A stretch of 64,000 nt of DNA from contig JAFRLB010000077.1 in NCBI GenBank assembly GCA_017431405.1, forward strand, positions 21,515 to 85,514. The letters are read 5' to 3'. The translations under genes were made by a program, and so were the position numbers. Source of the stretch: Erysipelotrichaceae bacterium. GTDB taxonomy: Bacteria > Bacillota_I > Bacilli_A > Erysipelotrichales > Erysipelotrichaceae. Of this stretch, positions 1,502-55,176 are shown one piece after another. The notes below the pieces were generated by a model. That model saw only the letters and a list, made by a program, of their open reading frames with translations. It was not told where the DNA came from and did no database searches. The number at the start of each line of letters is the position of its first letter. Position 1 is the stretch's first letter.

Positions 1502-1582
1502 TTTGATCCTCCTCAGATATCGACATTATAACATAACTTCCGCAAATTGCGAATTCTTGAGAATATGTGATAAGATGATGAT

Positions 1583-2428: not shown

Positions 2429-2429
2429 C

Positions 2430-3320: not shown

Positions 3321-3326
3321 CCAAAT

Positions 3327-3354
3327 AAATGGGTGCTTACTCAAGCACCCATTT
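3327..3354. terminator. Bidirectional hairpin between convergent lactonase and trmK genes
   Basis: aaatgggtgctt/aagcacccattt 12-bp inverted repeat with a T-rich flank. Overlaps the last codons of trmK. Confidence 0.6.
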
Positions 3355-4987: not shown

Positions 4988-5002
4988 ATTAAACTAATTA
5001 TC

Positions 5003-5031
5003 TAAAAAAAAAGCACTTTTGTGAAGTGCTT
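5003..5031 (-). terminator. Intrinsic terminator after the zinc-ribbon protein gene
   Basis: Minus strand AAGCACTTCACAAAAGTGCTT followed by T9. The stem overlaps the stop codon. Confidence 0.7.
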
Positions 5032-6217
5032 ATTTTAAATTAGTAACATCGATCCTTGTTGGTGCGCTGTCGACTTCGCCAATGTTGGCACTGCGTGAAT
5101 TGTTAGTGAAGTTCAACAGGTTTCCCAAAATGCTGGTCAGATCTAAACCGCTTGAAGTATTGTTTGTTGTGGTGGTAGTAGTCTGACCGTTAGATACCTT
5201 TTCCTTTAAGGTTGTTAAGGCCTTGTCTTCCTTGAATGAACCAACGAAGTTACTGAAGGCTGTAGCTGCACTCTGTAAGTTTTCTTCATCAGTGATCAGA
5301 CCAAAGATGTACTTACTGCCCCAGTTGATGTAAACACCACTGTTGGTATTTGTCTGTGTACCACCGCCAATTAATGAAGTTAACAAGCCCATCATGTTAT
5401 TGGCATTTGTTTGTTGGGCAGCACTGGTCAGATGGAATTCAAAGCCACCGACATCGGCACCGAGTAACAGGTAGTTGGTCTTTCTGTTAGCTGTGTACTT
5501 ATACTGCAACAAGATAGATTCATTGACTAATGAAGCCAGTTCAAATTTTAACTGTGAGTTGTTGAACTGCTTTGCCAGTTCATTGGCATCAGCCTGCCAT
5601 GCCTTCTTGGCTGTGGCATCATTCTGACCATAGTAGCTTGGTAAGGTTCCCTTTCCTACCTGAGTCAGCTTGGCATTTACGAAATAGCCGGTTAAGGAAT
5701 TAACGTATTCGTCAAATGCTGTAAGTCTCCTCATTGGTGTATTGAAGTACTTATCCATTGCCCCATCCTTATGTACTTCATCCTGAGCAATGCCGTTTCT
5801 GACATCTAAGAAGTTTTCGCCGCTTCTGACAAACATGGTAACGGTATTATCAGTATTAGTTACCTGTGCGATAGAAACAAACGGTTCTTCCTTACTCTGG
5901 AAAGTGTTCTGGATCTCAGCACCATATTTCCAGCCTGCAGGAATGTTGGCTGTACCAATGGTAGTCTTGGTAGCCGTATCAACGAACTTAACTGCCACCA
6001 TCTGTTTTCTGGCTGCTGATGTTGTACTGGTTGTAGTGTTGGTTGTTGTGTTATTGACAGTAGAAGCCGGCTTAACTGTAGAAGTCGTGGTTCCGGTTGC
6101 CTTCTTACTTGTTACTCTGGCAGCTGCTCCACATAAAGGACAGAATAAAGCATCTCTGGTACTGTCAAATTCAAACTCAGTATTACACTGACTGCATTTG
6201 TATACTCTTAAGCTCAT
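5030..6217 (-). CDS. Zinc-ribbon (FmdB-like CxxC...CxxC) protein with Thr/Asn-rich linkers, function unknown
   Basis: Start trimmed to MSLRVYKCSQCNTEFEF...FCPLCGA, preceded by the RBS AGAGGGAAAATAAT. The longer track ORF start lies inside the rpoD terminator. Confidence 0.6.
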   Translation of the reverse strand: MSLRVYKCSQCNTEFEFDSTRDALFCPLCGAAARVTSKKATGTTTSTVKPASTVNNTTTNTTTSTTSAARKQMVAVKFVDTATKTTIGTANIPAGWKYGAEIQNTFQSKEEPFVSIAQVTNTDNTVTMFVRSGENFLDVRNGIAQDEVHKDGAMDKYFNTPMRRLTAFDEYVNSLTGYFVNAKLTQVGKGTLPSYYGQNDATAKKAWQADANELAKQFNNSQLKFELASLVNESILLQYKYTANRKTNYLLLGADVGGFEFHLTSAAQQTNANNMMGLLTSLIGGGTQTNTNSGVYINWGSKYIFGLITDEENLQSAATAFSNFVGSFKEDKALTTLKEKVSNGQTTTTTTNNTSSGLDLTSILGNLLNFTNNSRSANIGEVDSAPTRIDVTNLK

Positions 6218-6265
6218 ATTATTTTCCCTCTTATTTCTTTCCTTTATTATAGCATTATCCATGAT

Positions 6266-6295
6266 AAAAAACACAACCGGTATTGGCCGATTGTG
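6266..6295 (-). terminator. Intrinsic terminator after rpoD
   Basis: Minus strand CACAATCGG-CCAATA-CCGGTTGTG followed by TTTTTT. Confidence 0.6.
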
Positions 6296-6308
6296 CTGTT
6301 ATATAATG

Positions 6309-7754
6309 TTAAACTTTATCTACGAAATCCTTTAAACGCTTGCTCTTGGTTGGATGCTTTAACTTACGTAAGGCCTTGGCTTCGATCTGTCTGATTCTTT
6401 CACGGGTTACGTTGAATTCCTTGCCAACTTCTTCAAGGGTTCTGGTTCTGCCGTCAATCAGACCGAATCTTAACTGTAAGACCTTTCTTTCACGGTCAGT
6501 TAATAACTGTAAGACGCTTTCGATTTCATCCTTTAATAACTGTCTGGTTGCGTATTCATCCGGTGATAAGGCTTCCTTGTCTTCAATGAAGTCACCTAAG
6601 TGGCTGTCATCTTCTTCACCGATTGGTGTTTCCAAAGATACTGGATCAAGAGCGATCTTCTGGATCTCTCTGACCTTTTCCGGTGATAAGGTTCCGCCTA
6701 ACTTTTCAGAGATTTCTTCAGCTGATGGTTCTCTGCCTAATTCCTGAACAAGCTGTCTCTGTACTCTGGTCAGCTTATTGATGGTTTCAACCATGTGAAC
6801 AGGGATACGAATTGTTCTGGCCTGGTCAGCGATGGCTCTGGTAATGGCCTGTCTGATCCACCATGTTGCGTAAGTAGAGAACTTAAAGCCCATTGATGGT
6901 TCAAACTTTTCAACGGCCTTAACCAAGCCCATGTTGCCTTCCTGGATCAGGTCTAAGAACAGTAAGCCTCTGCCGACATACTTCTTGGCAATGGCAACTA
7001 CCAGTCTTAAGTTACTGCTGGTTAAGATGTCCTTGGCTTCCTGAGCCTTGGCTGGGAAGTCTTCTCTCTTCTTGTATTCTTCATTCTTGGCTAATAAACT
7101 TGTACGCTTGGTTTCAAGTTTCTTCTTTTCTCTCTTGATGGCAGCGAGTTCCTTCTTTTCTTCTTCGGTTTTCTCGTTTTTGCCCTTCTTAGCCAGTTCA
7201 TTTTCTCTTTCCTGAATTTCATTCAGTCTGATTTCAATGTTTTCAACTTCAATTAAGAGTGTTGGATCACCATGAATAGTATAGGCAACCTTCTTTTCTT
7301 CTTCCGGCTTCAATAGTGGTACGCGGCCGATTTCCTTTAAGTACATCTTGACGTTATCACTGGTCTTCATTGAAGAGTTGTCAGCGTAATTTGCCTTGAG
7401 GTCGTTCAGGAATTCTTCATCGTTTTCATCAGAAAGATAGTCATCTTCATCAATGACGTCTTCATCTACGTCCAGGTCATCCAGATTATCGTCTAATACG
7501 ACATCTTCTTCCACACCGATATCAGGTGTTTCTTCTTCCAGTTCAAGCGTATCATACCAGTTCATGACACTGTCTGTTTCAGCATCAGTTAATTCCAGAG
7601 ACTGTAAGAACTTCTTGATGTTCTTATAGTCTTCATTTGAAAGGCTTAAGCCGCCAACCTGTTCGTTTATGACATCTTCCGTAATAGGATTACCGGTCTT
7701 ACTGTATTCCGCAAAGTAATCCTTTATTTTCTGTAAATTCTGTTTTTCAGCCAT
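6309..7754 (-). CDS. sigA: Primary RNA polymerase sigma factor SigA/RpoD
   Basis: 481 aa with an acidic N-terminus. Motifs: [27 protein letters not shown] and [29 protein letters not shown]. Immediately downstream of dnaG. Confidence 0.95.
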
Positions 7755-7765
7755 GTTATTACCTC

Positions 7766-9517
7766 CTATTTCGCTTTCAGTAATGTCTTACGCTGTTTGC
7801 GCAGATTAACTATTTCCTGCAGGATCCTGGCCTGCACGGTTGAATCAGTGTAGTTCTTCATCTCCTGGTTTTTCTGAGCGATCTGATCATCTATTACACT
7901 GACCTTGATTCTGTTTATGGCATCGGTAAATACCCTGTTATCGATCTTGTCTTCTATCAGATCATCATCCACTATCTCAAATACCAGAGCCTTCAGTCTT
8001 TCATTTTCCAATGAACCAACAAACTCAGCAACGTTCAGCTGATCATGATAGTTGTAATAATCGACAATGTACATTGCCAGAGTATTACTATCTCTGTTTC
8101 TCAAGAAGTTGAGTTCCTTCTTGTAAGTGTCACACATCTGCTTGGAATTAAGCATCTGTTTCAATATCGTTCTTTCCGCAATGGTCACACCATCCTTGTT
8201 TCTGGTAATGACCTCAACGGTTTCAACTTCTCTTCTTTCCGGCTTTGGTGAAACGACATTCTTATCGAATACAGTCGTCTGGAAACCGGTTAAGGAAGAC
8301 AGTCTGTTTATGTAGTTTTCTCTGTCAAAGCTGTCATTCAGCTTGTTTATCTCCTGCATTACCTTGCTGGAGAATTCCTTCTTGGACGTATAGTTTGACA
8401 GGTTATACTGCTTCTGGAAATAAGTGAAAATGAATTCGATCCAGCTGATGGCATTTGTGACCATGGTCTTTAACATGTCACCACCACCGCTGTTAACGAT
8501 CTCATCCGGGTCCTTGTCAGTACTGTTGTTAAGAACCATTACTTCAAAGCCTAAGCTCTGAGCAAGACTTCCTACCTTGTAAATGGCATTTTGTCCCGCC
8601 TTATCGCCATCAAAGCCCATTACCAGTCTGCTGGTTATTCTCTTTAAGGAAAGTAACTGGTTTCTGGTACAGCTGGTACCCATGGAGCAGACCGCATTAC
8701 TTATGCCGGCCCTATCAAAGGCAATGACATCCATTGGCCCTTCCGCCAAGACCATGAACTTGTCTCTTCTGGCGATATCCTTGGCCCTGTGGAAATTAAA
8801 CAGTACTTCACTCTTCTTGAATAACGGTGTATCTGTTGAGTTGATGTACTTGCTAGGGTTATTTGGATCCAATGTTCTGGCGGTAAAGCCGATTGGATGG
8901 CCATCCCTGTCATGAATCGGAATCATCAGACGGTCATAGAAGACGTCGGCGATTCCCCTTTCAGTTAATCTGGCCATGTTGGCTTCAATGATGTCCTTAT
9001 CCTGATAGCCCTTCTTGCTTAAGAAGTTATAAAGAACATTGCCGCCCGGATTATAGCCGAACTGATACTTTTCTATTACCTCATTAGACAGTTTGCGGTT
9101 GGTAAGATAACTCTTTACCTTTACCCCTGCCTGACTGTTTAATTCGTGCTGGCAATATATAACAGATTCTCTTAAGACCTTATGCAGGTTTGTTTCGACA
9201 AATGTATTGGTATACTCGCTGCCAAAATCATACTTATAGTCGATCAGGTCAGCGACTTTCTTTACCGCTGTAACATAATCAACATTCTCGTATTTCTGAA
9301 CGAAGCCGAAGACGTCACCGGCCGTACCACACACAAAGCACTTGAAGATCTGCTTGTCCTTGGAAATGCTTAGTGATGGGTTATGGTCATCGTGAAAAGG
9401 ACACATTGCCACATAGCCGTTACCTTTTCTGATGACTTCTATGTAGTGCCCTATTACATCTTCAATGTTGGCTTTCTGCCTTATTTCATTTATGACTTCT
9501 TCAGGTATTCTGGCCAC
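7766..9517 (-). CDS. dnaG: DNA primase
   Basis: 583 aa. Zinc finger is [26 protein letters not shown]. The TOPRIM region is EGPMDVI...DGDKAG. Confidence 0.95.
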
Positions 9518-34540: not shown

Positions 34541-35326
34541 ATGATTGCTTCAGAAAGACGTATTTACATTTTAGGCAAACTATCCGAAAGAGGAACAATC
34601 TCTTTAACTGAAACAGCTAAAGAGCTACACACATCAGTAGCTACTGTACGCCGTGACTTTGATTCCCTGGCAAAGGAAGATTACATTGAAAGAGTTCATG
34701 GCGGACTTATTCTTAAGGAATCAATGTTCCTGCAGAAAAACATGTATAACAATAACGCCGCCTTGGCCTTGAAGCAAAGACAGAAGAGCAACGAGGCTGA
34801 AAAGCGTGTTGTTGCGCAGGCAGCTGCTTCCCTGGTTAACGATGGCGATTTCATTTATCTTGACACAGGTACATCAATTGCCGCAATCGTTGATTTCTTA
34901 CTGGATAAGAAGATCAGCATCGTTACTCCTAACCTTCTGATATTGGACAGAATCAGAGAACTGGAAGTTGAAATGGATATCGTTCTGATTGGCGGCAAGT
35001 GTAACATTTCCCATGGCTCAACGGTTGGTCCTATTTCCGTACAGTTCATTCAGCAGTTCAATTTCGACAAGGCATTTTTTGGATGCTACGCAATTGATCT
35101 GGCAACCAACATGGCATATGATGATGGCCCTGACTCCTGTTTCCTGAAGGTCAATGCCTTTAACAATACCAATGACAGCTACCTGTTAGCCGATTCATCA
35201 AAGCTAAACAAGAAATCATTCTACAAGTTTACGGAAATATCAAAGTTCAAGAACGTTTTCTGTAACACACCAAAGAACAGCGACTATCGTTTGCCATCAA
35301 ATTTCATAACATTGGACGTTAAATAA
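34541..35326 (+). CDS. DeoR family transcriptional regulator
   Basis: 261 aa. N-terminal HTH is ERRIYILGKLSERGTISLTETAKELHTSVATVRRDFDSL, followed by a C-terminal sugar-phosphate sensor domain. Confidence 0.85.
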   Translation: MIASERRIYILGKLSERGTISLTETAKELHTSVATVRRDFDSLAKEDYIERVHGGLILKESMFLQKNMYNNNAALALKQRQKSNEAEKRVVAQAAASLVNDGDFIYLDTGTSIAAIVDFLLDKKISIVTPNLLILDRIRELEVEMDIVLIGGKCNISHGSTVGPISVQFIQQFNFDKAFFGCYAIDLATNMAYDDGPDSCFLKVNAFNNTNDSYLLADSSKLNKKSFYKFTEISKFKNVFCNTPKNSDYRLPSNFITLDVK

Positions 35327-43085: not shown

Positions 43086-43111
43086 ATTTCTAATCCTCAC
43101 TTATCAAGAAT

Positions 43112-43172
43112 GGTGCACAGACAAAATTCTGTTTGTGCACCATGTAATTATTGTGTTTTGTTCAGACAAAAC
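43112..43172 (-). terminator. Two hairpins after GRE-1 (weak terminator or processing site)
   Basis: ggtgcacagac/gtttgtgcacc (11 bp, one mismatch) and gttttgt/acaaaac. Only a weak T-tract follows. Confidence 0.3.
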
Positions 43173-43189: not shown

Positions 43190-45463
43190 CTATACCTGAT
43201 CGTACATTGTTCTGGACAGTAACTCTAACTGTACGCTCTTGTCCAGGTTGACGAATACGGCAGAGAATCCTGATACACGAACGATCAGGTTCTGGTGGTT
43301 CTCCGGATGTACCATTGCGTCTTCAAGAGCATGGTGATCAATTACAGTTACCATTAACTGACAGCCGCCCTTCTTGAAATAACCCTTGAACAACATGCCG
43401 ATCTTATCAATGTTGTCCTTGAAGAAGTTCTTCTGGAACTTGATGTTCTGAACCTGGCCAACCTGCCAATGAGCATCAAACTTAGCCAGTGAATTGAGCA
43501 TGGCTGTTGGACCGCTCTTGTCAGCGCCACCCTGTGGGTTGTTAGACGGGTTCATGAAGGTCTTGGCCTTTCTGCCATCAGGTGAAGCCCAGGTCTTTAA
43601 GCCCCAGCTGGTATTCTGCTGGTTATTGATGATAACGATGCCATAGTGATGTAAGCCGTGTCTTGGACCAGCTTCATAGTTTTCCTTACCAACTAATTCA
43701 AAGAGGTCATTAGCGATCTTATCAACCGGTTCGCAATCGTTACCATACTTTTCACAGTCCTTCATGTCCTGCTGCATCTGTTCGTATCCTTCAAAGTCAG
43801 CTAATAATGCGTTATTAACTTCTCTTAAGGTGTACTTCTTCTGATCAAACACTAACTTCTTTAAGGCATATAATGAGTCTGAACAGTTGATGTTGCCATA
43901 GGTTTCATTACAGCCGCCTAAGTACTTGATGCCGCCGCCTAATACAGGTTTGCCTCTTTCGATACAATCCTGCATCATGGCACTTACCATCAGATAACTC
44001 ATTTCATTATTCTGCATGATGTATGAATTAGCCTGAGATGTGGCAATGATGTCTGTCATGTACTTGATGAAGTCTGAGAAGTCATTCCAGAACTGTTCAT
44101 ATGTTTCGTATTCTTCCAGTTTCTTTAACTTGAAGTCACCTGCTTTATAACGGTTATCATATGGGTCAATACCTTCATTTAAGAAGATGGTCAAACTCTT
44201 TAACAGGTTATGACCGGCATTTGGTGTACCTACTGTCATGCCCTGTAAGTTCATTTCGCCACAGCCAAACATTGCGTACTGTTCAGCTTCCTTTTCAGAA
44301 ACTCTCATACAGTTAGCCAGGCCTGGAACATGTACTTCATCGTTATAAAGTGTTGGGAATGTAGCACCATCTGCCAAACATTCCATAGCCTTATCCCAGA
44401 TGTCCTTTGGTGTATCTTCATATAGTCTCAAGGTAAACTGAGGTTCTACCTGACGCATTTCCTTACATACGTCAAGGCAGATTCTGGCGAATTCATCAGC
44501 GGCCTTTGGATTATGTCTGCCTCTGCCGCCAACGATCAATCTACCGTTAACAGTGGTTCTCTTGTTTTCAATTAATACCCACAATGAACGAACCAGGTCG
44601 TGTGCTTCTTCCCTGGTAATGAAGCCACTTTCAAGGTCAGCTACCAGATAATCACCAACTACTTCATCAAGTCGGCCATAGTTGATACAACCTGCCAGGT
44701 ATGCGTAAATCCATACACAGTGTAAGGCATCAATGAAGTGAACCGGCTTGTCAACTCTGATTCTCTTTAAGGAATCCTGCATTCTGACAAGTTCATATTT
44801 TCTCTTTTCACTGGCTGTCGGTAACATTCCATCAATCATGTTGATGTAGTGGTCACAGACAACTGTGAACAGATCCATTGCCTCATAAGTAGCCTTTAAG
44901 AAGTTATTGTCAGGTTCTTCTTCGATTCTCTTGGCAATCATTTCCTTCATGCCCTTTACACCGTTGGCACAGAACTTCTTATAATCAAGCATCATGCCTG
45001 AAAGTCTGATACCGAGTAATAAAGGTTCATCTTCTGAATTACTTGGAATAGGTGTTGGGTATACGCCTTTGAAACGTTCGCCAATGGTATTGCCGGTGAA
45101 GTAATCTTCGATTTTGTTCATGCGTTCGATCAGATCAGGATCATCTGTTGATTCACGCAGTAAGTTCAGGTTTCTGTAATGGCAATAGTAACCTACGCCA
45201 CCTACTGAAGTAACACAACCAAAGCCAACCGGCAAGTAGTCAACACGGCATGCCAGCATATCCTTTTCCATGATGCTTCTGCACAGGAATGGATACATTA
45301 ATTTCAGGGCTTCCAATTCTCTGAAGTTCTTATCCATGTCCTTGGTGCGCTCCATCATTTCGATGAAGCTTTCCATCCAGACAACCTGCTGTTCAACAGT
45401 TTTTTCAGCTTTTAACTTGGATTCTATTTCTGCATTAGTTTTTGCATATACTTTCTTTGCCAT
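43190..45463 (-). CDS. Glycyl radical enzyme paralog GRE-1 (type A)
   Basis: 757 aa. C-terminal glycyl motif is NLIVRVSGFSAVFVNL (Gly codon at 43268..43270). The thiyl loop is MFGCGEMNLQG. Confidence 0.9.
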   Translation of the reverse strand: MAKKVYAKTNAEIESKLKAEKTVEQQVVWMESFIEMMERTKDMDKNFRELEALKLMYPFLCRSIMEKDMLACRVDYLPVGFGCVTSVGGVGYYCHYRNLNLLRESTDDPDLIERMNKIEDYFTGNTIGERFKGVYPTPIPSNSEDEPLLLGIRLSGMMLDYKKFCANGVKGMKEMIAKRIEEEPDNNFLKATYEAMDLFTVVCDHYINMIDGMLPTASEKRKYELVRMQDSLKRIRVDKPVHFIDALHCVWIYAYLAGCINYGRLDEVVGDYLVADLESGFITREEAHDLVRSLWVLIENKRTTVNGRLIVGGRGRHNPKAADEFARICLDVCKEMRQVEPQFTLRLYEDTPKDIWDKAMECLADGATFPTLYNDEVHVPGLANCMRVSEKEAEQYAMFGCGEMNLQGMTVGTPNAGHNLLKSLTIFLNEGIDPYDNRYKAGDFKLKKLEEYETYEQFWNDFSDFIKYMTDIIATSQANSYIMQNNEMSYLMVSAMMQDCIERGKPVLGGGIKYLGGCNETYGNINCSDSLYALKKLVFDQKKYTLREVNNALLADFEGYEQMQQDMKDCEKYGNDCEPVDKIANDLFELVGKENYEAGPRHGLHHYGIVIINNQQNTSWGLKTWASPDGRKAKTFMNPSNNPQGGADKSGPTAMLNSLAKFDAHWQVGQVQNIKFQKNFFKDNIDKIGMLFKGYFKKGGCQLMVTVIDHHALEDAMVHPENHQNLIVRVSGFSAVFVNLDKSVQLELLSRTMYDQV

Positions 45464-45472
45464 AAGTCCTCC

Positions 45473-47773
45473 TTATACGCGATCGTACATTGTTCTTGAT
45501 AACAGTTCCTCCTGAACGCTTCTGTCAAGGTTAACGAATACTGCTGAGAAGCCTGAAACACGAACGATAAGGTTCTGATAGTTTTCAGGATGGATCATTG
45601 CTTCTTCAAGAGCGTGGTGGTCAATGACAGTTACCATTAACTGACAGCCGCCCTTCTTGAAGTATGTCTTGAACAGCATTCCGATCTTCTCAATGTTTTC
45701 CTTGAAGAAATTCTTCTGGAACTTGATGTTCTGAACCTGACCAACCTGCCATTTGGCATCAAACTTAGCCAGTGAGTTCAGCATTGCGGTAGGACCGCTT
45801 TTATCTGCACCACCCTGTGGGTTGTTAGATGGGTTTAAGAATACAGTTGAGTTACGGCCATCAGGTGAAGCACCTGTTACCTTACCCCAAGATGTATTAC
45901 CCTGGTTGTTAATGATTACGATACCATAGTAATGTAAGCCCTTTTCGATGCCTAAACGACGGATGTTATAAGAAATCAGTTCGAATACGTCGTTAGCAAT
46001 CTTGTCAACGGCATCAATGTCGTTACCATACTTTTCGCAATCCTTCATATCCTGCTGCATCTGTTCGTAGCCCTTGAAGTCAGCTAATAATGCATTATTA
46101 ACTTCTCTTAAGGTGTACTTCTTTTCATCAAATACCAACTTCTTTAATGCATATAAAGAGTCAGAACAGTTGATGTTACCGAAGGTTTCACAGCAGCCAC
46201 CTAAGTACTTAACGCCGCCATCCAATAAGGCCTTGCCTCTTTCGATACAGCAGTTAGTTAAGATACTTGGGAATAAGAAGCTTACTTCTTCATTCATTAA
46301 CTTGTATGAGTCTACCTGACCCTGAGCACAGCGGTCAGCGTAGTAGATGATCAGCTTAGAGAAGTCTTCAAACAGTTCTTCGTATGTCTGAATTTCTTCT
46401 AACTTCTTGATCTTAACCGGTCCGATACGGTTAACGTTATCAATTGGGTCAACGCCACCATTTAAGTAAATGGTCAGTGCCTTAGTTAAGTTGATAACTG
46501 AGTTAGGTGTACCAATGCCCATTCCTACCAATGTCTGTTCACCACAGCCAAACATTACATACTGTTCGGCATCCTTTTCCGGTACTCTCATACAGTGAGT
46601 CAAACCTGGAACGTGAACTTCGTCATTGTATAATGTTGGGAATGTTGCACCTACTGCCAGACATTCCATGGCCTTATCCCAGATGTCCTTTGGTGTATCT
46701 TCATATAATCTCAAGGTGAACTGAGGTTCAACCTGTCTTGCTTCGTAACAGACATCCAGACAGATTCTGGCAAATTCATCAGCAGCCTTAGGATTTCTAC
46801 GGCCACGTCCGCCAACCATGATACGTCCGTTAACAGTTGTTCTCTTGTTTTCAATTAAGGTCCATAAGCTTCTGACGATCTTATGAGCATATTCTCTGGT
46901 GATGAAGCCTGTTTCAAGGTCCTTTACCAGATATTCGCCTACTACATCGTCAAGACGGCCATAGTTAATACAGCCTGCCAGTAATGCGTACATCCATACT
47001 GCTTCAAGAGCATCCAGGAAATGTTCTGGCTTATTGTAACGAATTGTAGATAATGAATCGATCATTCTCTGTAATTCTACTTTTCTCTGTTCTGTAGCTG
47101 TTTCCTTATCCTTTGTTAACATGTCGATGTAGTAATCACAGCACTTGGTAAACAGATCCAAAGCTTCTAATGAACACTGTAAGAATTCATTGTCAGGTTC
47201 TTCATTTAATCTGTCCTGAATTTCCTTCTTTAAGCCAACGATACCTAAGTCACATAACTTGTTATAGTCAAGCATCATGCCGCTCAAACGGGCACCGGCA
47301 CTAACTGCGGCGTGCTGACCATTAGCTACACCATAGCCGGTAACGATGATGCCATCGGTATAACGGTCAGTAAACTTAACACGGGTGTCTTCTACATGCC
47401 AGTACTTTTCCAGCTCTTCTACTCTTCTGATCATGTCTGGATCAGTTAAGCTGTTTTTAAATACGTTCAGGTTGTAGAAGTGACAGTAGTGACCTACACC
47501 GCCTACTGAAGTAACACAGCCAAAACCAACTGGTAAGAAGTCCATACGACCGGCAATAAGGTCATTTGGCTGAACAGTTCTTAAAAGTCTTGGCATTAAG
47601 ATCTTAAGTCCTTCAATTTCTCTTCTTGGTCTGCTTAAACCAGCCGTTTCCTTATGCTTGGCGGTATAAGCTTCCATGATCTCCAGCTGTTCTTCTGGAG
47701 TCTTTTCAATTGCGAGTTTTTTCTCAATTTCTACATTTGGATGGATAGTAAGTTTCTCCGATTCCTTTGTCAT
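45473..47773 (-). CDS. Glycyl radical enzyme paralog GRE-2 (type B)
   Basis: 766 aa with RVSGFSAVFVNL and MFGCGEQTLVG. 9-nt gap to GRE-1. Confidence 0.9.
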   Translation of the reverse strand: MTKESEKLTIHPNVEIEKKLAIEKTPEEQLEIMEAYTAKHKETAGLSRPRREIEGLKILMPRLLRTVQPNDLIAGRMDFLPVGFGCVTSVGGVGHYCHFYNLNVFKNSLTDPDMIRRVEELEKYWHVEDTRVKFTDRYTDGIIVTGYGVANGQHAAVSAGARLSGMMLDYNKLCDLGIVGLKKEIQDRLNEEPDNEFLQCSLEALDLFTKCCDYYIDMLTKDKETATEQRKVELQRMIDSLSTIRYNKPEHFLDALEAVWMYALLAGCINYGRLDDVVGEYLVKDLETGFITREYAHKIVRSLWTLIENKRTTVNGRIMVGGRGRRNPKAADEFARICLDVCYEARQVEPQFTLRLYEDTPKDIWDKAMECLAVGATFPTLYNDEVHVPGLTHCMRVPEKDAEQYVMFGCGEQTLVGMGIGTPNSVINLTKALTIYLNGGVDPIDNVNRIGPVKIKKLEEIQTYEELFEDFSKLIIYYADRCAQGQVDSYKLMNEEVSFLFPSILTNCCIERGKALLDGGVKYLGGCCETFGNINCSDSLYALKKLVFDEKKYTLREVNNALLADFKGYEQMQQDMKDCEKYGNDIDAVDKIANDVFELISYNIRRLGIEKGLHYYGIVIINNQGNTSWGKVTGASPDGRNSTVFLNPSNNPQGGADKSGPTAMLNSLAKFDAKWQVGQVQNIKFQKNFFKENIEKIGMLFKTYFKKGGCQLMVTVIDHHALEEAMIHPENYQNLIVRVSGFSAVFVNLDRSVQEELLSRTMYDRV

Positions 47774-47791
47774 AAGTTTCTTTCCCTCTTT

Positions 47792-50065
47792 CTATACTCG
47801 GTCGTACATTGTTCTAGATAATAATTCCTGCTGTACGCTCTTATCTAAGTTAACAAATACTGCTGAGAAGCCTGAAACACGAACAATTAAGTTCTGGTAT
47901 TTCTCTGGATGTACCATGGCTTCTTCCAGGGCATGGTGGTCAATAACGGTTACCATTAACTGACAGCCGCCCTTCTTGAAATATGTCTTGAACAGCATTC
48001 CGATCTTTTCCAGGTTTTCCTTGAAGAAGTTCTTCTGGAACTTGATGTTCTGTACCTGGCCAACCTGGAAGTGAGCATCAAACTTAGCCAGTGAGTTCAG
48101 CATGGCTGTTGGACCGCTCTTATCAGCGCCACCCTGCGGGTTGTTTGATGGGTTTAGGAAGACACCGGCATTTCTGCCATCAGGTGAAGCACCGGTCTTC
48201 ATGCCCCAGGTCGTATTACCCTGGTTATTAATGATAACGATGCCATAGTGATGTAAGCCAAATCTTGGACCTGCCTCATAGTTTGCCTTGGCAACAAGTT
48301 CAAACAGATCGTTGGCAATCGTATCAACTGAGTCGATGTCGTTACCATATTTTTCGCAATCCTTCATGTCCTGCTGCATCTTTTCATAACCCTTGAAGTC
48401 AGCTAATAAGGCATTATTTACTTCTCTCAAGGTATATTTCTTTTCGTCAAATACCAACTTCTTAAGTGCATATAATGAGTCTGAACAATTGATGTTGCCG
48501 TATGTTTCATTACAGCCGCCAAGGTACTTGATACCGCCATCTAAGACAGCCTTGCCACGGGCTATGCAATCCTGCATCATGCAGCTGACAAATAAGAAGC
48601 TCATCTCTTCATTCAGCATCTTGTAGCAGTTTGCCTGGGAAGATACGATGCAGTCTGTCTGCCACTTGATGAACTCTGAGAAGTCATTCCAGAACTGTTC
48701 ATATGTTTCGTATTCTTCCAGTTTCTTTAACTTGAAGTCACCTGCTCTGTATACATTGTCATAAGGGTCAACACCGTCATTCATGAAGATGTTGAGGGCC
48801 TTTACCAGGTTATGGCCGCCATTAGGTGTGCCAACGGTCATGCCCTGTAAGTTCATTTCGCCGCAGCCAAACATTGCGTACTGCTCAGCTTCCTTTTCAG
48901 AAACTCTCATGCAATGTGCCAAGCCTGGAACATGAACTTCGTCATTGTATAAGGTTGGGAATGTTGCACCATCTGCCAGGCATTCCATGGCCTTATCCCA
49001 GATGTCCTTTGGTGTATCTTCATATAGTCTCAAGGTGAACTGAGGTTCAACCTGTCTCATTTCCTTACATACATCAAGACAGATCCTTGCGAATTCATCG
49101 GCGGCCTTAGGATTCTTACGGCCTCTGCCGCCAACGATCAGTCTGCCATTTACGGTAGTTCTCTTATTTTCAATTAATACCCATAAGCTTCTTACCAGAT
49201 CATGAGCTTCTTCTCTGGTCAGGAAACCTGATTCAAGGTCATTAACCAAGAAATCACCGACTACATCATCAAGACGGCCATAGTTGATGCATCCTGCCAA
49301 GTAGGCATAGATCCAGATGCAATGAAGTGCATCGATGAAATGTACAGGCTTATCAACTCTGATTCTCTTTAAGGAATCCTGAATTCTGACAAGTTCATAC
49401 TTTCTCTTTTCTGTAGCTGTCGGTAACATGCCATCGATCATATCAATGTAATGGTCACATACTGCCGTAAAGAGATCCATTGCCTCATAGGAAGCCTTAA
49501 GGAAGTTATTGTCAGGTTCCTCTTCAATTCTTCTGGCCAGTTCTTCCTTCATGCCCTTTACGCCATTGGCACAGAACTTGTTATAGTCAAGCATCATGCC
49601 GCTTAAACGGATGACACCCAGAGTTGAACCGTTATCGGAACCGTCAATGTATGGTTTGCCATACTTCTGGTCAAAACGTTCAACAATGGTATTTCCTGTA
49701 TAGTAGTCTTCAATCTTATTCAATCTTTCAATCAGATCAGGATCGTCTGTTGATTCACGTAATAAGTTTAAATTTCTGTAGTGGCAGTAATAACCAACGC
49801 CACCTACTGAAGTAACACAACCAAAGCCAACCGGCAAATAGTCAACTCTGCATGCCAGCATGTCCTTGTCCATGATGCTTCTGCATAGGAATGGATACAT
49901 TAACTTCAAAGCTTCAAGTTCTCTGAAGCTCTTATCCATGTCTTTGGTACGTTCCAGCATGTCGACGAAGCTTTCCATCCAGGCAACCTGCTGTTCAACA
50001 GTTTTTTCAGCCTTAAGTTTTGCTTCTATTTCAACATTGGTTTTCTGATAGACTTTTTTAGCCAT
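47792..50065 (-). CDS. Glycyl radical enzyme paralog GRE-3 (type A')
   Basis: 757 aa with RVSGFSAVFVNL and MFGCGEMNLQG. The N-terminus is nearly identical to GRE-1. Confidence 0.9.
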   Translation of the reverse strand: MAKKVYQKTNVEIEAKLKAEKTVEQQVAWMESFVDMLERTKDMDKSFRELEALKLMYPFLCRSIMDKDMLACRVDYLPVGFGCVTSVGGVGYYCHYRNLNLLRESTDDPDLIERLNKIEDYYTGNTIVERFDQKYGKPYIDGSDNGSTLGVIRLSGMMLDYNKFCANGVKGMKEELARRIEEEPDNNFLKASYEAMDLFTAVCDHYIDMIDGMLPTATEKRKYELVRIQDSLKRIRVDKPVHFIDALHCIWIYAYLAGCINYGRLDDVVGDFLVNDLESGFLTREEAHDLVRSLWVLIENKRTTVNGRLIVGGRGRKNPKAADEFARICLDVCKEMRQVEPQFTLRLYEDTPKDIWDKAMECLADGATFPTLYNDEVHVPGLAHCMRVSEKEAEQYAMFGCGEMNLQGMTVGTPNGGHNLVKALNIFMNDGVDPYDNVYRAGDFKLKKLEEYETYEQFWNDFSEFIKWQTDCIVSSQANCYKMLNEEMSFLFVSCMMQDCIARGKAVLDGGIKYLGGCNETYGNINCSDSLYALKKLVFDEKKYTLREVNNALLADFKGYEKMQQDMKDCEKYGNDIDSVDTIANDLFELVAKANYEAGPRFGLHHYGIVIINNQGNTTWGMKTGASPDGRNAGVFLNPSNNPQGGADKSGPTAMLNSLAKFDAHFQVGQVQNIKFQKNFFKENLEKIGMLFKTYFKKGGCQLMVTVIDHHALEEAMVHPEKYQNLIVRVSGFSAVFVNLDKSVQQELLSRTMYDRV

Positions 50066-50077
50066 TGAGATCCTCCT

Positions 50078-52375
50078 TTATACCTTGTCGTACATGGTTC
50101 TGGACAGTAACTCCAGCTGTACGTTCTTAGATAAGTTAACAAATACGGCTGAGAATCCTGATACACGGACAATTAAGTTCTGATGGTTTTCCGGATGTAT
50201 CATGGCATCCTCTAATGCATGGTGGTCAATTACGGTTACCATCAACTGACAGCCACCCTTCTTGAAGTAGCCCTTGAACAGTAAGCCGATCTTTTCAATG
50301 TTATCCTTGAAGAAGTTCTTCTGGAACTTGATGTTCTGTACCTGACCTACCTGATAATGTGGGTCAAACTTAACCAGTGAGTTAAGCATTGCGGTTGGGC
50401 CGCTCTTATCAGCGCCACCCTGTGGGTTATTGGATGGGTTCATGAATACTCTTGAATTACGTCCATCCGGTGAAGCACTGGTGCTGTTGCCCCATAAGGT
50501 ATTGGTCTGGTTATTAATGATAACGATGCCATAGTAATGTAAGCCCATTTCCGGACCCATTTCATAGTTACGCTTAGCTACTAAGTTATAGACATCGTTG
50601 GCAATTTCATCTGCGTATGGATCATCATTGCCATATTTTGGTGCATCCTTCAGATCCTGCTGCATCTGTTCATAACCGACAAAGTCTGCCAGTAAGGCAT
50701 TATTGATTTCTCTTAAGGTATATTTCTTATCTTCAAAGACAAGTTTCTTAATGGCTACCAATGAGTCAGAAGCATTGATATTACCATAGGTTTCATTACA
50801 GCCGCCTAAGTATCTGACGCCGCCATCCAATAATGGCTTGCCTCTGGCAATACAGTCATTCATCAGGTTACTTACAAACAGGAATGAAACCTGAGTGTTC
50901 ATGAAGTGGTAACCCATTACCTGCTGCTTAACACACATGTCATTGTAGTAGTCACTGAGCTTGCAATAGTCTTCCCAGAACTCTTCGTATGTATGATAGT
51001 CTTCCAGTTTTCTTAAGATGACCGGACCAGCCTTATAACGGCCGTCAATTGGGTCAACGCCTTCATTCATCTGAATGGTGACTAACTTTAACAGGTTGAT
51101 TACGGCGTTTGGTGTACCTACGGTATAGGTCTGTAAGTTCATTTCGCCGCAGCCAAACATTGCGTACTGTTCAGCTTCCTTTTCCGGTACTCTCATGCAA
51201 TGTGCCAAGCCAGGAATGGTTACTTCATCGTTGTATAATGTCGGGAATGTAGCGCCATCAGCTAAACAATCCATTGCCTTATCCCAGATGTCCTTAGGTG
51301 TATCTTCATATAATCTCAGAGTAAACTGAGGTTCTACCTGTCTCATTTCCTTACATACATCAAGACAGATTCTAGCGAATTCATCTGCAGCAGCTGGGTT
51401 TCTGCGGCCACGGCCACCAACGATCAGTCTGCCGTTAACGGTTGTTCTCTTATTTTCAATTAATACCCATAAGCTTCTGACGATCTTATGAGCTTCTTCC
51501 TTTGTTAAATAACCTGATTCAAAGTCCTTAACCAGATAATCACCTAAGACATCATCAAGACGGCCATAGTTGATACAGCCGGCTAATAATGCATAGAGCC
51601 ATGTTGCTTCCAGGGCATCCATGAAATGAACAGGCTTATCTGTTCTGATCGTACATAAGGAATCCTTGATTCTCTGCAATTCATACTTTCTCTGTTCATC
51701 AGCTGTTTCCATGTCTTTATCAATCATGTCGATATAGTAGTCACAGCAGACTGTAAACAGATCCATTGCTTCTAATGAACACTGTAAGAATTCATTATCT
51801 GGTTCTTCTTCCAGTCTCTTTTTAATTACATTCTTTAAACCGGTAATACCTAGGTCACACAGCTTGTTATAGTCAAGCATCATGCCACTTAATCTAGGAC
51901 CTGCTGTAATAGGTGCGTTGTATATTGTCTGCATGTTATCGCCATAGACGACTTCAGGACGATAGTTACGGCTGTACTGGGTTCTGGTATCATACTTTGT
52001 CCAGTATTCATCTAAAGCGTCGATGCGTTTTAACAGATCTTCTTCTTCGATGCTGTCACGTAATTTATATAAATTGGCAAAGTGGCAATAATGACCTACC
52101 CCGCCAACAGAGGTTACTGCGCCAAATCCAATCGGCAGAAAATCCATTCTTCCTGCCAGTAAATCATCAGGTAAAATGGTTCTTAAAAGTCTTGGATATA
52201 TTACTTTCAAGCACTCCAGTTCTCTTCTTGACTTACTGGATTGAGAGAACTTGCGGTGCGTCTCGGTATATAATTCCATAATTTCAACCTGTTCTCTTGG
52301 AGATTTTTCACAGGCCAGTTTTGATTTGATTTCTACATTTGTATGCTCTCTCAGTTTTCTTGTTGCTAAAGACAT
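50078..52375 (-). CDS. Glycyl radical enzyme paralog GRE-4 (type B')
   Basis: 765 aa with RVSGFSAVFVNL and MFGCGEMNLQT. The N-terminus is GRE-2-like. Confidence 0.9.
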   Translation of the reverse strand: MSLATRKLREHTNVEIKSKLACEKSPREQVEIMELYTETHRKFSQSSKSRRELECLKVIYPRLLRTILPDDLLAGRMDFLPIGFGAVTSVGGVGHYCHFANLYKLRDSIEEEDLLKRIDALDEYWTKYDTRTQYSRNYRPEVVYGDNMQTIYNAPITAGPRLSGMMLDYNKLCDLGITGLKNVIKKRLEEEPDNEFLQCSLEAMDLFTVCCDYYIDMIDKDMETADEQRKYELQRIKDSLCTIRTDKPVHFMDALEATWLYALLAGCINYGRLDDVLGDYLVKDFESGYLTKEEAHKIVRSLWVLIENKRTTVNGRLIVGGRGRRNPAAADEFARICLDVCKEMRQVEPQFTLRLYEDTPKDIWDKAMDCLADGATFPTLYNDEVTIPGLAHCMRVPEKEAEQYAMFGCGEMNLQTYTVGTPNAVINLLKLVTIQMNEGVDPIDGRYKAGPVILRKLEDYHTYEEFWEDYCKLSDYYNDMCVKQQVMGYHFMNTQVSFLFVSNLMNDCIARGKPLLDGGVRYLGGCNETYGNINASDSLVAIKKLVFEDKKYTLREINNALLADFVGYEQMQQDLKDAPKYGNDDPYADEIANDVYNLVAKRNYEMGPEMGLHYYGIVIINNQTNTLWGNSTSASPDGRNSRVFMNPSNNPQGGADKSGPTAMLNSLVKFDPHYQVGQVQNIKFQKNFFKDNIEKIGLLFKGYFKKGGCQLMVTVIDHHALEDAMIHPENHQNLIVRVSGFSAVFVNLSKNVQLELLSRTMYDKV

Positions 52376-52476: not shown

Positions 52477-53256
52477 TTATTCAGCCTTGTTTTCAGTTAC
52501 ATCACCGAACCAGATCATTTCATCCTTATGCCAGTCTGTGGTGTAGCGGTTCAATGCGTCAGTAAACTTTCTGACGATCAAGTGTGGACGGGTAATTGCA
52601 CTGCCGACAACGATGGCATCTGCACCCATGTACATAGCCTTGACAGCATCCATTGGGTATTCAATATTGCCTTCCATGACAACGAATGCTCTTTCTCTTA
52701 AGCCCTTTGCCATTCTGGCAACTGCGCCATAATCAGGACGCTTGTAGCCAAGAGCCTTAGATTCCTTAGTAATACCCATACATGTTGTAGCAACGATATC
52801 AGCACCTAAGTCAATTGCATGTTCAGCATTTTCGTATGAATCGATATCAGCGAAAATTAATGCATCAGGAATTTCCTTCTTGATTTCCTTGATCAGATCA
52901 CAGCGTGGAACGCCCTTATGGTTAGGTAACTGAGTAGCGTCTAATGCGATGATCTGAGCACCAGCATCATATAATGCCTTGGCATGTTCGATAGTTGGAG
53001 TCATGATTATTGTGCCAACTGTATCGTAATAGATCTTGTGTAAGCCTACGATCGGCAGATTAACTGCAGCGTGAATAGCAGCTACCTGTTCTGGCTTGTT
53101 TGCACGGATACCAACAGCTCCGCCATATTCAGCAGCTCTTGCCATCATAACAACAGTTCTGCCGTCATTATGAATTGGGTCATGTGGTTCAGTCTGGCAT
53201 GAAACGATCATTCCGCCTCTCATGCTGTCTAATAATGCCTTCTTATCAATACTCAT
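52477..53256 (-). CDS. NanE-family putative N-acylmannosamine-6-phosphate 2-epimerase, paralog 1
   Basis: 259 aa. Motifs: MIVSCQ, GGAVGIRAN, LPIVGLHK, TPT, ALDAT, EGNI, VVGSAITRP. All are NanE hallmarks. Confidence 0.8.
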   Translation of the reverse strand: MSIDKKALLDSMRGGMIVSCQTEPHDPIHNDGRTVVMMARAAEYGGAVGIRANKPEQVAAIHAAVNLPIVGLHKIYYDTVGTIIMTPTIEHAKALYDAGAQIIALDATQLPNHKGVPRCDLIKEIKKEIPDALIFADIDSYENAEHAIDLGADIVATTCMGITKESKALGYKRPDYGAVARMAKGLRERAFVVMEGNIEYPMDAVKAMYMGADAIVVGSAITRPHLIVRKFTDALNRYTTDWHKDEMIWFGDVTENKAE

Positions 53257-53324
53257 TATTTTTTTCCTTTCTTGTTTTACATGAACAAAGAGGCTCTGTG
53301 AGCCATTCCTCTTTATAGATTTAC

Positions 53325-53356
53325 AGCTGCCCTTTGCCAGGCGGCAAAGGACAGCT
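53325..53356 (-). other. Conserved intercistronic hairpin after NanE-like gene 2
   Basis: 14-bp stem agctgccctttgcc/ggcaaaggacagct with one wobble pair. Its flanks are homologous to the 52424 hairpin. Confidence 0.5.
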
Positions 53357-53369
53357 TATTCAGTTTTGA

Positions 53370-54143
53370 TTATTCAGCTTTTGTTACATCGCCATACCAT
53401 GTGGCTTCTGCTTCATGCCAGTCTGTGGTGTAGCGGTTCAGAGCGTCAGTGAACTTCTTAACGATTAAGTGTGGACGAGTAATTGCACTACCAACTACGA
53501 TAGCATCAACACCCATGTACATAGCCTTGATTGCATCTTCAGGAGTTTCAATGTGACCTTCCATAACAACGAAAGCTCTGTCCTTTAAGCCCTTAGCTAA
53601 TCTTGCTACTGCAGCGTAGTCTGGACGCTTGTAGCCCTGAGCCTTTGATTCAGGAGTGCCGCCCATACATGTTGTAGCAACGATATCAGCACCTAATTCG
53701 ATTGCGTGTTCAGCATTTTCGTATGTGTCGATATCAGCGAAGATCAGTGCATCTGGGATTTCCTTCTTGATTTCCTTGATCAGGTCGCAACGTGGTACAC
53801 CTAAATGGTTCAGACGCTGTGTGCTGTCTAAGGCAATGATCTGTGCACCAGCTTCATATAAAGCCTTAGCATGTTCAATGGTTGGAGTCATGATAATTTC
53901 GCCCATTGTATCGTAGTAGATCTTATGTAAGCCTACGATTGGCAGTTTAACTGCAGCATGGATAGCAGCAACCTGTTCAGGCTTGTTTGAACGGATACCA
54001 ACAGCTCCACCATATTCAGCAGCTTTTGCCATAGTAACAACTGTCCTTCCCTCATCATGGATAGGGTCATGAGGTTCGGTCTGGCATGAAACGATCAATC
54101 CACCTCTCATGCTGTCTAAAAGTGCCTTTTTGTCAAAACTCAT
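53370..54143 (-). CDS. NanE-family putative N-acylmannosamine-6-phosphate 2-epimerase, paralog 2
   Basis: 257 aa with the same motif set as paralog 1 and most positions identical to it. Confidence 0.8.
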   Translation of the reverse strand: MSFDKKALLDSMRGGLIVSCQTEPHDPIHDEGRTVVTMAKAAEYGGAVGIRSNKPEQVAAIHAAVKLPIVGLHKIYYDTMGEIIMTPTIEHAKALYEAGAQIIALDSTQRLNHLGVPRCDLIKEIKKEIPDALIFADIDTYENAEHAIELGADIVATTCMGGTPESKAQGYKRPDYAAVARLAKGLKDRAFVVMEGHIETPEDAIKAMYMGVDAIVVGSAITRPHLIVKKFTDALNRYTTDWHEAEATWYGDVTKAE

Positions 54144-54201: not shown

Positions 54202-55116
54202 TTAACCGCCTGCCTGAACCTTGAGTCCCAGCTTATCGCCAAGAGCTTCATAATGCTTCAGGTCAGCCTTGCTCATCATCTTTGTACCCTTTAAGGCATA
54301 ATCACGGCCTAACTGTTCATACTTGTTTTCGCCTAAGTTATGGTAAGGTAAAAGATTTACTTCAGGTATGTTCAGACTGGCTGCCATTTCAATGATGGCT
54401 GTCAGTACTTCTTCTTCATAGTTGTAACCAGGGATAACCGGTACACGGATAACGATCTTTTCAGCGGCGATCTCTGCCAGCTTACGTAAGTTTTCCTGGA
54501 TTCTCCAGCCGTTACCACCGGTGATTTCCTTGATCTTTTCAGGAGTTGACTGCTTCATGTCGAACAGGAACTTGTCAATTAAAGGTTCTGCCTTCTTCAT
54601 TTTTTCCCAATCAGTATCGCCTGTTGTTTCAACAGCTGTGCTGATGCCTAATTCCTTGGCTCTCTGTAAGATGTTGTAGAAGAAATCAAACTGTACGAAT
54701 GGTTCACCACCAGATACGGTAATACCGCCGCCTGATACATCGTAGTAATCCTTGTCTCTGGAAATGTAATCAATTACTTCATCAACAGTCTTGATGTCAC
54801 CGATGAAGTTGATTGCCTTACCCGGACAGTTTCTTTCACAGGTTTTACAGCCAATACACTTGCTGCGGTCAAATTCCAGATGATCACCGACAATTGTAAT
54901 GGCATGCTGTGGACAGTTACGTGCACATGTTCCACACTTCAAGCATTTCTTAACGTTGTACATCAGCTGTGGTTTGATCTGCTGAGATTCTGGGTTTGCA
55001 CACCAAGGACATCTTAATGGACATCCCTGAATGAAAACTGTTGTTCTGATACCAGGACCATCATGGATGGCAAATCTTTCCATTTCCATGACACTACCCT
55101 TAACTACGTCTGCCAT
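54202..55116 (-). CDS. Glycyl radical enzyme activating enzyme (radical SAM, with ferredoxin-like insert)
   Basis: Start trimmed to MADVVKGSVMEMERFAIHDGPGIRTTVFIQGCPLRCPWCANPES after the RBS GGAGG. Also has CLKCGTCARNCP and CIGCKTCERNCP clusters. Confidence 0.9.
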   Translation of the reverse strand: MADVVKGSVMEMERFAIHDGPGIRTTVFIQGCPLRCPWCANPESQQIKPQLMYNVKKCLKCGTCARNCPQHAITIVGDHLEFDRSKCIGCKTCERNCPGKAINFIGDIKTVDEVIDYISRDKDYYDVSGGGITVSGGEPFVQFDFFYNILQRAKELGISTAVETTGDTDWEKMKKAEPLIDKFLFDMKQSTPEKIKEITGGNGWRIQENLRKLAEIAAEKIVIRVPVIPGYNYEEEVLTAIIEMAASLNIPEVNLLPYHNLGENKYEQLGRDYALKGTKMMSKADLKHYEALGDKLGLKVQAGG

Positions 55117-55176
55117 AATTACCTCCATTTGCAACTTTTTGATTGTTTTTAAACTTTTATATTCAATTTCACCAAT

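Follow-up and report, generated by a model that had tools for sequence, protein, structure and literature searches.

Organization of the GRE array

The stretch of DNA analysed here (hereafter the window) comprises 64,000 nucleotides of contig JAFRLB010000077.1 (GenBank assembly GCA_017431405.1) from an Erysipelotrichaceae bacterium, and carries on its minus strand a tandem array of four genes for glycyl radical enzymes (GREs), which are oxygen-sensitive radical enzymes. The four open reading frames (ORFs) are arranged head to tail with gaps of 9–18 nt over 9.2 kb; the ORF list and the alternating A/B order along the operon agree with an initial annotation made from the sequence alone. The paralogs are designated A1, B1, A2, and B2 in operon order, corresponding to GRE-4, GRE-3, GRE-2, and GRE-1, respectively, in the earlier numbering by window coordinate.

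50078..52375, minus strand: GRE paralog A1 (GRE-4); 765 aa; the operon's first GRE; Cys409/Glu411 and Gly740; PF02901 and PF01228
47792..50065, minus strand: GRE paralog B1 (GRE-3); 757 aa; Cys401/Glu403 and Gly732; B type, probably derived
45473..47773, minus strand: GRE paralog A2 (GRE-2); 766 aa; probably the earliest-branching in the array; Cys-loop surroundings most altered (GCGEQTLVGMGI)
43190..45463, minus strand: GRE paralog B2 (GRE-1); 757 aa; the operon's last GRE

The two A-to-B junctions are alike, each running from TAA through GGAGGA to ATGGC. All four proteins contain the domains of the GRE superfamily (pyruvate formate-lyase (PFL)-like; PF02901 at 346–383 bits and PF01228 at 81–89 bits), together with an FGCGE Cys loop (Cys-x-Glu) and an RVSGFS Gly loop. 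The GRE fingerprint, RVxG[FWY]x6-8[FL]x4Qx2[IV]x2R, which goes with a catalytic Cys on the Cys loop (PMC13450708), is present in each of them as RVSGFSAVFVNL(D/S)K(S/N)VQxELLSR, with Leu replacing [IV]. An AlphaFold (AF2) model of B1 (predicted local distance difference test (pLDDT) score, 89; predicted template modelling (pTM) score, 0.90) matched solved GREs over the full length with template modelling (TM) scores of 0.83–0.86 and identities of 18–25%. None of the characterised GRE equivalogs searched, namely glycerol/1,2-propanediol dehydratase (GD/PD), CutC, HypD, HpsG/HpfG, IAD, HPAD, PflB, and PflD, was reached, the best NCBIfam scores being 188–291 bits against cut-offs of 678–1150. As judged from sequence, the array represents four copies of an uncharacterised GRE branch linked to NanE and the phosphotransferase system (PTS) in a gut Erysipelotrichaceae bacterium.

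A fifth paralog, E (768 aa, 63% identity to B1; G000:C94:91284-93566; locus L005 1495-3801, minus strand), lies ~20 kb from the array, outside the window. The array itself is shared by at least four assemblies, and beyond the window genome (hereafter G0) it was found in G008/L026, L024/L032, and L025. The sister genome (G8; G008/L026) is a metagenome-assembled genome (MAG) of an Erysipelotrichaceae bacterium from roe-deer jejunum with 97–98% identity; two further assemblies, X (L024/L032) and Y (L025; GCA_054285925.1), show 82–88% identity.

Mosaic relationships among the paralogs

The initial annotation described likenesses among the paralogs that change along the gene, and these were borne out by the present analysis. 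Thus, in codons 1–250, where like had been said to pair with like, the nucleotide identity is 0.82–0.90 for B1–B2 and 0.60–0.77 for A1–A2 (a weak pairing), versus 0.45–0.71 for the A-versus-B pairs. The proposed re-pairing of the C-terminal tails is also seen in the last ~120 residues, where five amino acid-informative sites (649, 695, 706, 727, and 735) unite A1 with B2 and B1 with A2, as opposed to one site following the A|B division; the counts for the whole protein are 65 for A|B and 5 and 8 for the other two patterns. Moreover, A2 groups with B1 in the FDEKKY...NNQGNT block, the central block hardly varies (at 9 of its ~86 residues), and divergence peaks at codons ~101–175 and ~451–525. 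Among 287 four-taxon informative nucleotide sites, the A|B pattern is dominant in codons 1–270, 421–510, and 601–690, and is equalled or exceeded elsewhere by the other two patterns.

Maximum-likelihood trees were built for six segments, including S2 (codons 291–400) and S6 (codons 651–769), which lie at the following positions.

A1 51188..51517, B1 48902-49231, A2 46583-46912, B2 44300-44629, minus strand: conserved core, alignment codons 291–400; the A/B distinction collapses
B2 43193..43549, A2 45476-45832, B1 47795-48151, A1 50081-50437, minus strand: C-terminal glycyl-radical-domain segment, alignment codons 651–769; reticulate

Instead of one topology throughout the gene, the segments gave significantly incongruent topologies. 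Codons 1–290 and 401–520 yielded cleanly separated ortholog groups and a deep division between A and B, and the core and the C-terminal domain yielded a shallow tree in which the ortholog groups dissolve. In approximately unbiased (AU) tests, the C-terminal (S6) data rejected the whole-gene tree (p = 0.0009), the N-terminal (S1) data rejected the trees of S2 (core), S4, and S6 (C-terminal), and the core data were borderline (p = 0.054). Consistently, the ratio of the A–B protein distance to the distance from E is 1.0–1.3 in the variable segments versus 0.41 in the core and tail.

Recombination tests of the GENECONV and pairwise homoplasy index (PHI) types were significant overall. Amino acid site patterns are clustered along the protein (permutation, p = 0.0009), and a four-gamete PHI-type test on the four genes gave p = 0.003 for all sites, p = 0.017 for codon positions 1 and 2, and a non-significant p = 0.16 for the saturated third positions; with ten array genes from three genomes, p was 0.001. 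In a GENECONV-like permutation test, several fragments of 25–72 nt passed Bonferroni correction. Collectively, these results show that the mosaic exceeds chance.

Direct footprints of exchange

Exchange between paralogs was further sought as discrete tracts, for which the following features are relevant.

51275..51398 (homologous B1 positions, 48989-49112), minus strand: stretch of A1 replaced by B1-like sequence in the sister genome (G008/L026); gene-conversion footprint
B1 48675..48746 and B2 44073-44144, minus strand: 72-nt exact B1/B2 repeat; longest exact inter-paralog run and switch point of the L031 chimera described below
43347..43378 (also 45630-45661 and 47949-47980), minus strand: 32-nt string encoding FKKGGCQLMV; within chance expectation
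49442..49499, minus strand: substitution cluster unique to B1 of G0; ~10 substitutions in 58 nt, one of them amino acid-changing; matches no paralog, ortholog, or copy E

The A1 genes of G0 and G8 differ at 15 positions within 124 nt (alignment nt 990–1113) and at none in the 90-nt flanks on either side. The G8 A1 patch equals G8 B1 over 86 nt except for one site, and includes three synonymous changes of G8 B1 relative to G0 B1. Double changes between G0 and G8 in the array paralogs were concerted in 15 cases and anti-concerted in 2, as compared with 9 and 6 when the unlinked copy E was involved. Sequence types of the tail are likewise shared across paralog classes and species, and not by orthology.

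The lengths of exact runs were evaluated against a synonymous-shuffle null, in which synonymous matches were permuted among identical-residue codons and the longest exact run was recorded for each pair. The longest run expected is 28–40 nt per pair, with a 95th percentile of 38–56 nt. Two runs were over-long after correction, one of 72 nt between B1 and B2 of G0 (p = 0.002) and one of 65 nt between A1 and B2 of Y, extending across the Cys loop (p = 0.001). The 32-nt string noted initially does occur at 43347, 45630, and 47949; it was rejected as evidence of conversion, since it falls inside the 28–40 nt null, and its recurrence in other genomes and pairs shows that it reflects constraint or preferred codons. 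The discrete tracts attributable to interparalog conversion are therefore the G8 A1/B1 patch and the 72- and 65-nt runs, with the 32-mer not qualifying. The cluster at 49442-49499 in B1 of G0 came either from a donor other than the sequences compared or from a cluster of mutations. It may be concluded that the paralogs have exchanged sequence, with one clear recent conversion footprint, which is found in the sister genome.

Duplication history

The order of duplication was examined by rooting the full-length protein tree with 15 outgroups, using FastTree and a 25-taxon IQ-TREE run. The rooted tree was (A2,(A1,(B1,B2))), and AU tests with the 15 outgroups rejected both ((A1,A2),B) (p = 0.004) and ((A2,B),A1) (p = 0.021). 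The single duplication of an A-B two-gene unit proposed in the initial annotation is contradicted by the former rejection and by the unequal divergence of the two pairs, the nonsynonymous divergence (dN) being 0.23 for A1–A2 versus 0.09 for B1–B2. The unrooted or E-rooted nucleotide tree was ((A1,A2),(B1,B2)) with 82% support, and the first 100 codons lean, not significantly, to (A1,A2). The B type departs from family-invariant residues kept by the A types (H92Y, G72C, W122Y/F, D126T, E248H, and Y469Q/M), so that the resemblance of A1 to A2 is mostly a retained ancestral state. We hold with moderate confidence that B would be the derived lineage and that A2 would have branched first, then A1, and then B1/B2.

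Relatives, age, and selection

Gene order and gene integrity vary among the relatives. In X, the order is A1-B1-A2 followed by a truncated B2. In L024 (10344-11261) and L032 (6929-7846), which are independent assemblies, a stop following codon 305 (…LIENKRTTV*) truncates the B2 ortholog, which suggests that the fourth copy is decaying in the X lineage. In Y (1116-7978), the order is NanE-A1-B1-B2, with A2 absent between B1 and B2; as the L025 contig goes no further than B2, A2 may lie elsewhere or have been lost. Codon 170 of B1 in the sister genome (G008:C69; L007/L026) is an in-frame TAG, and the gene is intact in the near-identical P0009 and P0138, so that the TAG is either a nonsense mutation particular to the strain or an error of sequencing.

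The subfamily is large, over 1500 relatives falling within E ≤ 1e-150. A single copy is present in other genera, and more distant members (55–62% identity) stand alone in PTS EIIABCD-(NanE)-GRE-activase cassettes; the fourfold array is thus a lineage-specific expansion. Among the orthologs of G0, X, and Y, dN is 0.03–0.07 and the synonymous divergence (dS) 0.8–1.6, with dN/dS of ~0.05. At identical residues, the same codon is used in 59–71% of cases between orthologs, 60–67% between within-genome paralogs, and 55–58% with copy E, for a saturation expectation of ~49%. These sequence comparisons indicate that the array predates these species and that all copies, their variable segments included, are under strong purifying selection. 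The variable segments, seen in the initial annotation as diversified specificity loops, are fixed and conserved among orthologs (dN of 0.02–0.12) and so are not still diversifying.

Location of the differences in the protein

Paralog-variable positions make up 28% of the predicted strands versus 47% of the predicted helices. The divergence peak at 451–500 coincides with one long predicted helix (B1 455–487), and that at 101–150 with predicted helices and a loop leading into barrel strand beta-1. This loop differs in each paralog, and each of its versions is conserved within its ortholog group.

B1 49616..49672, A1 51902-51973, A2 47297-47371, B2 45014-45070, minus strand: paralog-specific 'signature loop' before beta-1 (RLSGMMLDY); four distinct versions

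In GREs, strands of the barrel together with the two loops form the active site (PMC13450708). Alignment with GD places its His164, His281/Ser282, Cys433/Glu435, Asp447, and Tyr640 at B1 Gly156, Gly258/Cys259, Cys401/Glu403, Asn415, and Val610, respectively. These aligned positions are mostly invariant within the array, and type-specific differences near them are few: GCGEMNLQ(T/G)(Y/M)TV after the Cys loop in A1 and B versus GCGEQTLVGMGI in A2, GTPN(A/S)VI in the A types versus GTPN(G/A)GH in the B types, and NNQ(T/G/G/Q)NT, which varies between paralogs. Contact with the activase requires the C-terminal domain to flip out (PMC13450708). On this structural mapping, the exchangeable parts may serve shared chemistry and a shared activase, and those that are fixed and distinct would account for specificity towards substrates or partners.

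Neighbourhood, activase, and copy E

The operon contains an activase gene upstream of the GREs.

54202..55134, minus strand: GRE activase, PFLE/PFLC-type; TIGR02494 at 332.9 bits (cut-off, 174); same operon, upstream of the GREs

It is the only PFLE/PFLC-type protein above cut-off in the 83%-complete assembly, versus five GREs of the subfamily, and presumably all five share it. The sole other glycine-radical protein of the assembly (C20) adjoins a weak activase-like match; as a guess, this pair could be an anaerobic ribonucleotide reductase and its activase. Also upstream in the GRE operon are two adjacent NanE-family paralogs (window 52477-54143; 259 and 257 aa) above the NF002231 cut-off, both of which occur in L024 and L031 as well; the NanE epimerase has been duplicated along with the GREs. 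The surroundings further include a mannose-type PTS and genes for DeoC, HAD phosphatases, a BaiCD-like flavoenzyme, an MGH1-like glycosidase, and a NagA-like protein.

Copy E lacks a dedicated activase; a malic enzyme gene precedes it, and a Cof-type HAD phosphatase and a GntR regulator follow. After the B2 stop, a short inverted repeat, GTGCACA...TGTGCAC, is located at window 43113-43140 (minus strand); it lacks a clear T-run, and position 43100 is the start of the next gene. In L027, L029, and L030, single-copy GREs of the subfamily stand beside a sigma-54 gene, to which L027 adds a sigma-54-dependent, PRD-containing activator; no sigma-54-type regulator was seen in the window, and a DeoR-type gene lies near (34541-35326).

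Origin of the mosaic array

The array is probably an old, lineage-specific tandem expansion of a NanE/PTS-linked GRE, in which distinct signature parts have been kept and short tracts of the core and tail have been exchanged between copies. Successive duplications would have split off A2 first and then A1, and a fast-evolving B lineage would later have given B1 and B2. Each copy would have been fixed under strong purifying selection with its own N-terminal region, signature loop, and post-Cys-loop helix, while the near-identity of the catalytic core and of the glycyl radical domain at the C-terminus would be due to shared chemistry and to a single activase having to recognise all copies. As the core and tail stretches stay alike, it is there that recombination between copies would occur: RecA-type recombination would occasionally paste tracts of ~40–120 nt between paralogs and may cause unequal crossing-over. 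The outcome would be a patchwork along the gene, different segments of which give different trees. We infer here the duplication order, the role of the single activase, and the setting of substrate or partner specificity by the variable parts.

Several observations weigh against this reading. The mean paralog identity is 0.718 within genomes versus 0.704 between them, an excess of only 0.014 (1.4%), and strong ongoing concerted evolution was rejected. The excess is largest for the adjacent B1–A2 pair (+0.03 to +0.055 in conserved segments), and part of it may be compositional, an effect of ~0.005 being seen with copy E as well. Synonymous sites are near saturation even between orthologs, so that old conversion can neither be dated by dS nor be cleanly separated from constraint. 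The GENECONV-like test is liberal and flags a B1–E fragment as well, and all of the source genomes are MAGs or metagenome scaffolds. The AU test on S4 was not significant, and the grouping of A2 with B in this segment is a shared ancestral state. Conversion from B to A2 was accordingly rejected as the main cause of the likeness between A2 and B in codons 540–600, where the states shared by outgroup E show A1 to be the diverged copy. Conversion was also rejected for Gly706, common to A1 and B2, since its GGC and GGT codons come from GCC and GCT backgrounds and point to parallel change. As for the order of duplication, no rooted hypothesis was significant from any single segment, and the full-length tree is an average across an alignment that is itself recombinant, for which reason the order is held only moderately. 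The initial idea that recombination homogenised the core is correct in that the paralogs have recombined in short patches of 40–120 nt; however, the core block is highly conserved also in 52 other family members, so that most of its invariance is due to purifying selection throughout the family. Conversion has been patchy, short, and mostly old.

Much of this could be accommodated without any recombination, through uneven constraint, synonymous saturation, faster evolution of particular lineages (the B type, and A1 within codons 540–600), and a few parallel substitutions. Family-wide conservation of the core, the saturated synonymous sites, the ancestral pattern in S4, the parallel change at Gly706, the ordinary 32-mer, the small within-genome excess, and the non-significant third-position test all agree with such a history. 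We nevertheless consider it unlikely, because it is at odds with the G8 A1 patch, which copies B1 down to three lineage-specific synonymous changes between flanks of zero difference, and with the 15 concerted versus 2 anti-concerted double changes, the 72- and 65-nt runs exceeding the null, the AU rejection of the whole-gene tree for the C-terminal segment, and the tail types that cross paralog classes and species. That metagenome assemblers produced the mosaic by switching between near-identical stretches of paralogs is scarcely credible: the same order and tail types recur in independent assemblies of other samples (G008/L026 at 97–98%; P0134, P0137, and P0138), the paralogs are only ~70–82% identical with exact runs of at most 72 nt, and the mosaic is visible at amino acid sites conserved among orthologs. 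The metagenomic origin of all sources would favour such switching, as would scaffold L031 (ENA ERZ28654617; 16913-19747), which looks as a mis-join would. In this scaffold, A1, B1, and A2 are identical to those of the window, and the fourth gene has B2 sequence as far as nt 1322 and B1 sequence beginning at nt 1395, a perfect chimera that switches inside the shared 72-nt run and is followed by the B1–A2 spacer, a second A2 start, and the contig end. This chimeric protein was seen in one assembly only, and it is due either to duplication of an [A2-B] unit through unequal crossing-over or to a mis-join by the assembler.

The L031 scaffold also bears on the remaining rival, in which a single duplication of an A-B unit produced A-B-A-B, the core was subsequently homogenised through recombination, and A subunits pair with B subunits as heterodimers. 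Besides this hint of [A2-B] duplication by unequal crossing-over, the alternating gene order, the similar A-to-B junctions, the unrooted or E-rooted nucleotide tree (82%), and the non-significant leaning of the first 100 codons speak for it. These are opposed by the 15-outgroup rooted tree, which rejects the monophyly of (A1,A2) (AU, p = 0.004), the dN values of 0.23 and 0.09, genome Y with A1-B1-B2 and no A2 in between, and the occurrence of the subfamily elsewhere as a single gene. The heterodimer part draws on the dimer interface, which is formed by N-terminal helices, where A and B differ most; a 2026 review of GREs describes homodimers and does not mention a heterodimer (PMC13450708). Overall, this history appears quite improbable. 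More speculatively still, the L031 B2/B1 chimera with its second A2 start suggests that the array may be a natural module-shuffling system. Exchange within the core and the glycyl-radical domain, both conserved, would join N-terminal and signature-loop modules to different C-terminal halves, and unequal crossing-over would expand or contract [A2-B] units. The chimeric GREs then present in gut populations would be functional and have novel substrate ranges, perhaps in mixed A/B dimers, with a single activase for all; this would be a long shot.

Implications and comparison with known systems

If the array is the mosaic expansion proposed above, its fixed and exchangeable parts can be told apart, the catalytic core and the activase-docking domain behaving as interchangeable. 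Four signature regions, namely the loop before beta-1, the post-Cys-loop helix, the Cys-loop surroundings, and NNQxNT, would mark four maintained specialisations, and their positions provide concrete swap targets for finding the substrates of a large orphan family. The duplication history is corrected as well; as an evolutionary phenomenon the array is ordinary, and the enzyme subfamily is uncharacterised.

Gene conversion among tandem paralogs is well known, for example in tufA/tufB and in tandem outer-membrane or pilin gene families. The array resembles these cases in its short tracts between nearby paralogs, its incongruent trees, and the combination of exchange where identity is highest with divergence where selection keeps the copies apart. 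Unlike tufA/tufB-type cases, homogenisation in the array is weak and mostly old (1.4% excess), the copies being 70–82% identical and not nearly identical. A literature search returned nothing relevant on gene conversion among GREs or on tandem GRE paralogs.

Within the superfamily, the best sequence and fold matches are the B12-independent glycerol and 1,2-propanediol dehydratases (PDB 1R8W and 5I2G), which share the barrel (TM 0.85), the Cys and Gly loops, the fingerprint RVSGF...Q...R, the Cys-x-Glu motif, and a nearby activase. They differ in their identity of only 24% and in GD His164 and Ser282, replaced by Gly156 and Cys259; moreover, the array lacks microcompartment genes and lies amid sugar-phosphate genes (mannose-type PTS, two NanE, DeoC, NagA-like, and HAD phosphatases). 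The single-copy PTS EIIABCD-NanE-GRE-activase cassette belongs to the same subfamily (50–62% identity) and has the same partner genes; the array differs from it in having four tandem GREs, a fifth ~20 kb off, a duplicated NanE, and one activase.

YbiW and PflD (PDB 8ID7 and 8ID0) are also full-length PFL-like proteins with a single Cys and Cys-x-Glu, encoded alongside PTS and aldolase genes, and act as C-O lyases on 1,5-anhydroglucitol-6-phosphate and 1,5-anhydromannitol-6-phosphate, being counted among the GRE isomerases (PMC13450708). They are set apart from the array by identities of 21–25%, by PflD NCBIfam scores of 194–234 bits versus a cut-off of 1109, and by being two unlinked genes instead of four copies plus a fifth. 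By analogy, the pairing of YbiW and PflD on C2-epimeric sugar phosphates offers a plausible parallel for several GRE paralogs standing beside two NanE-type C2-epimerases.

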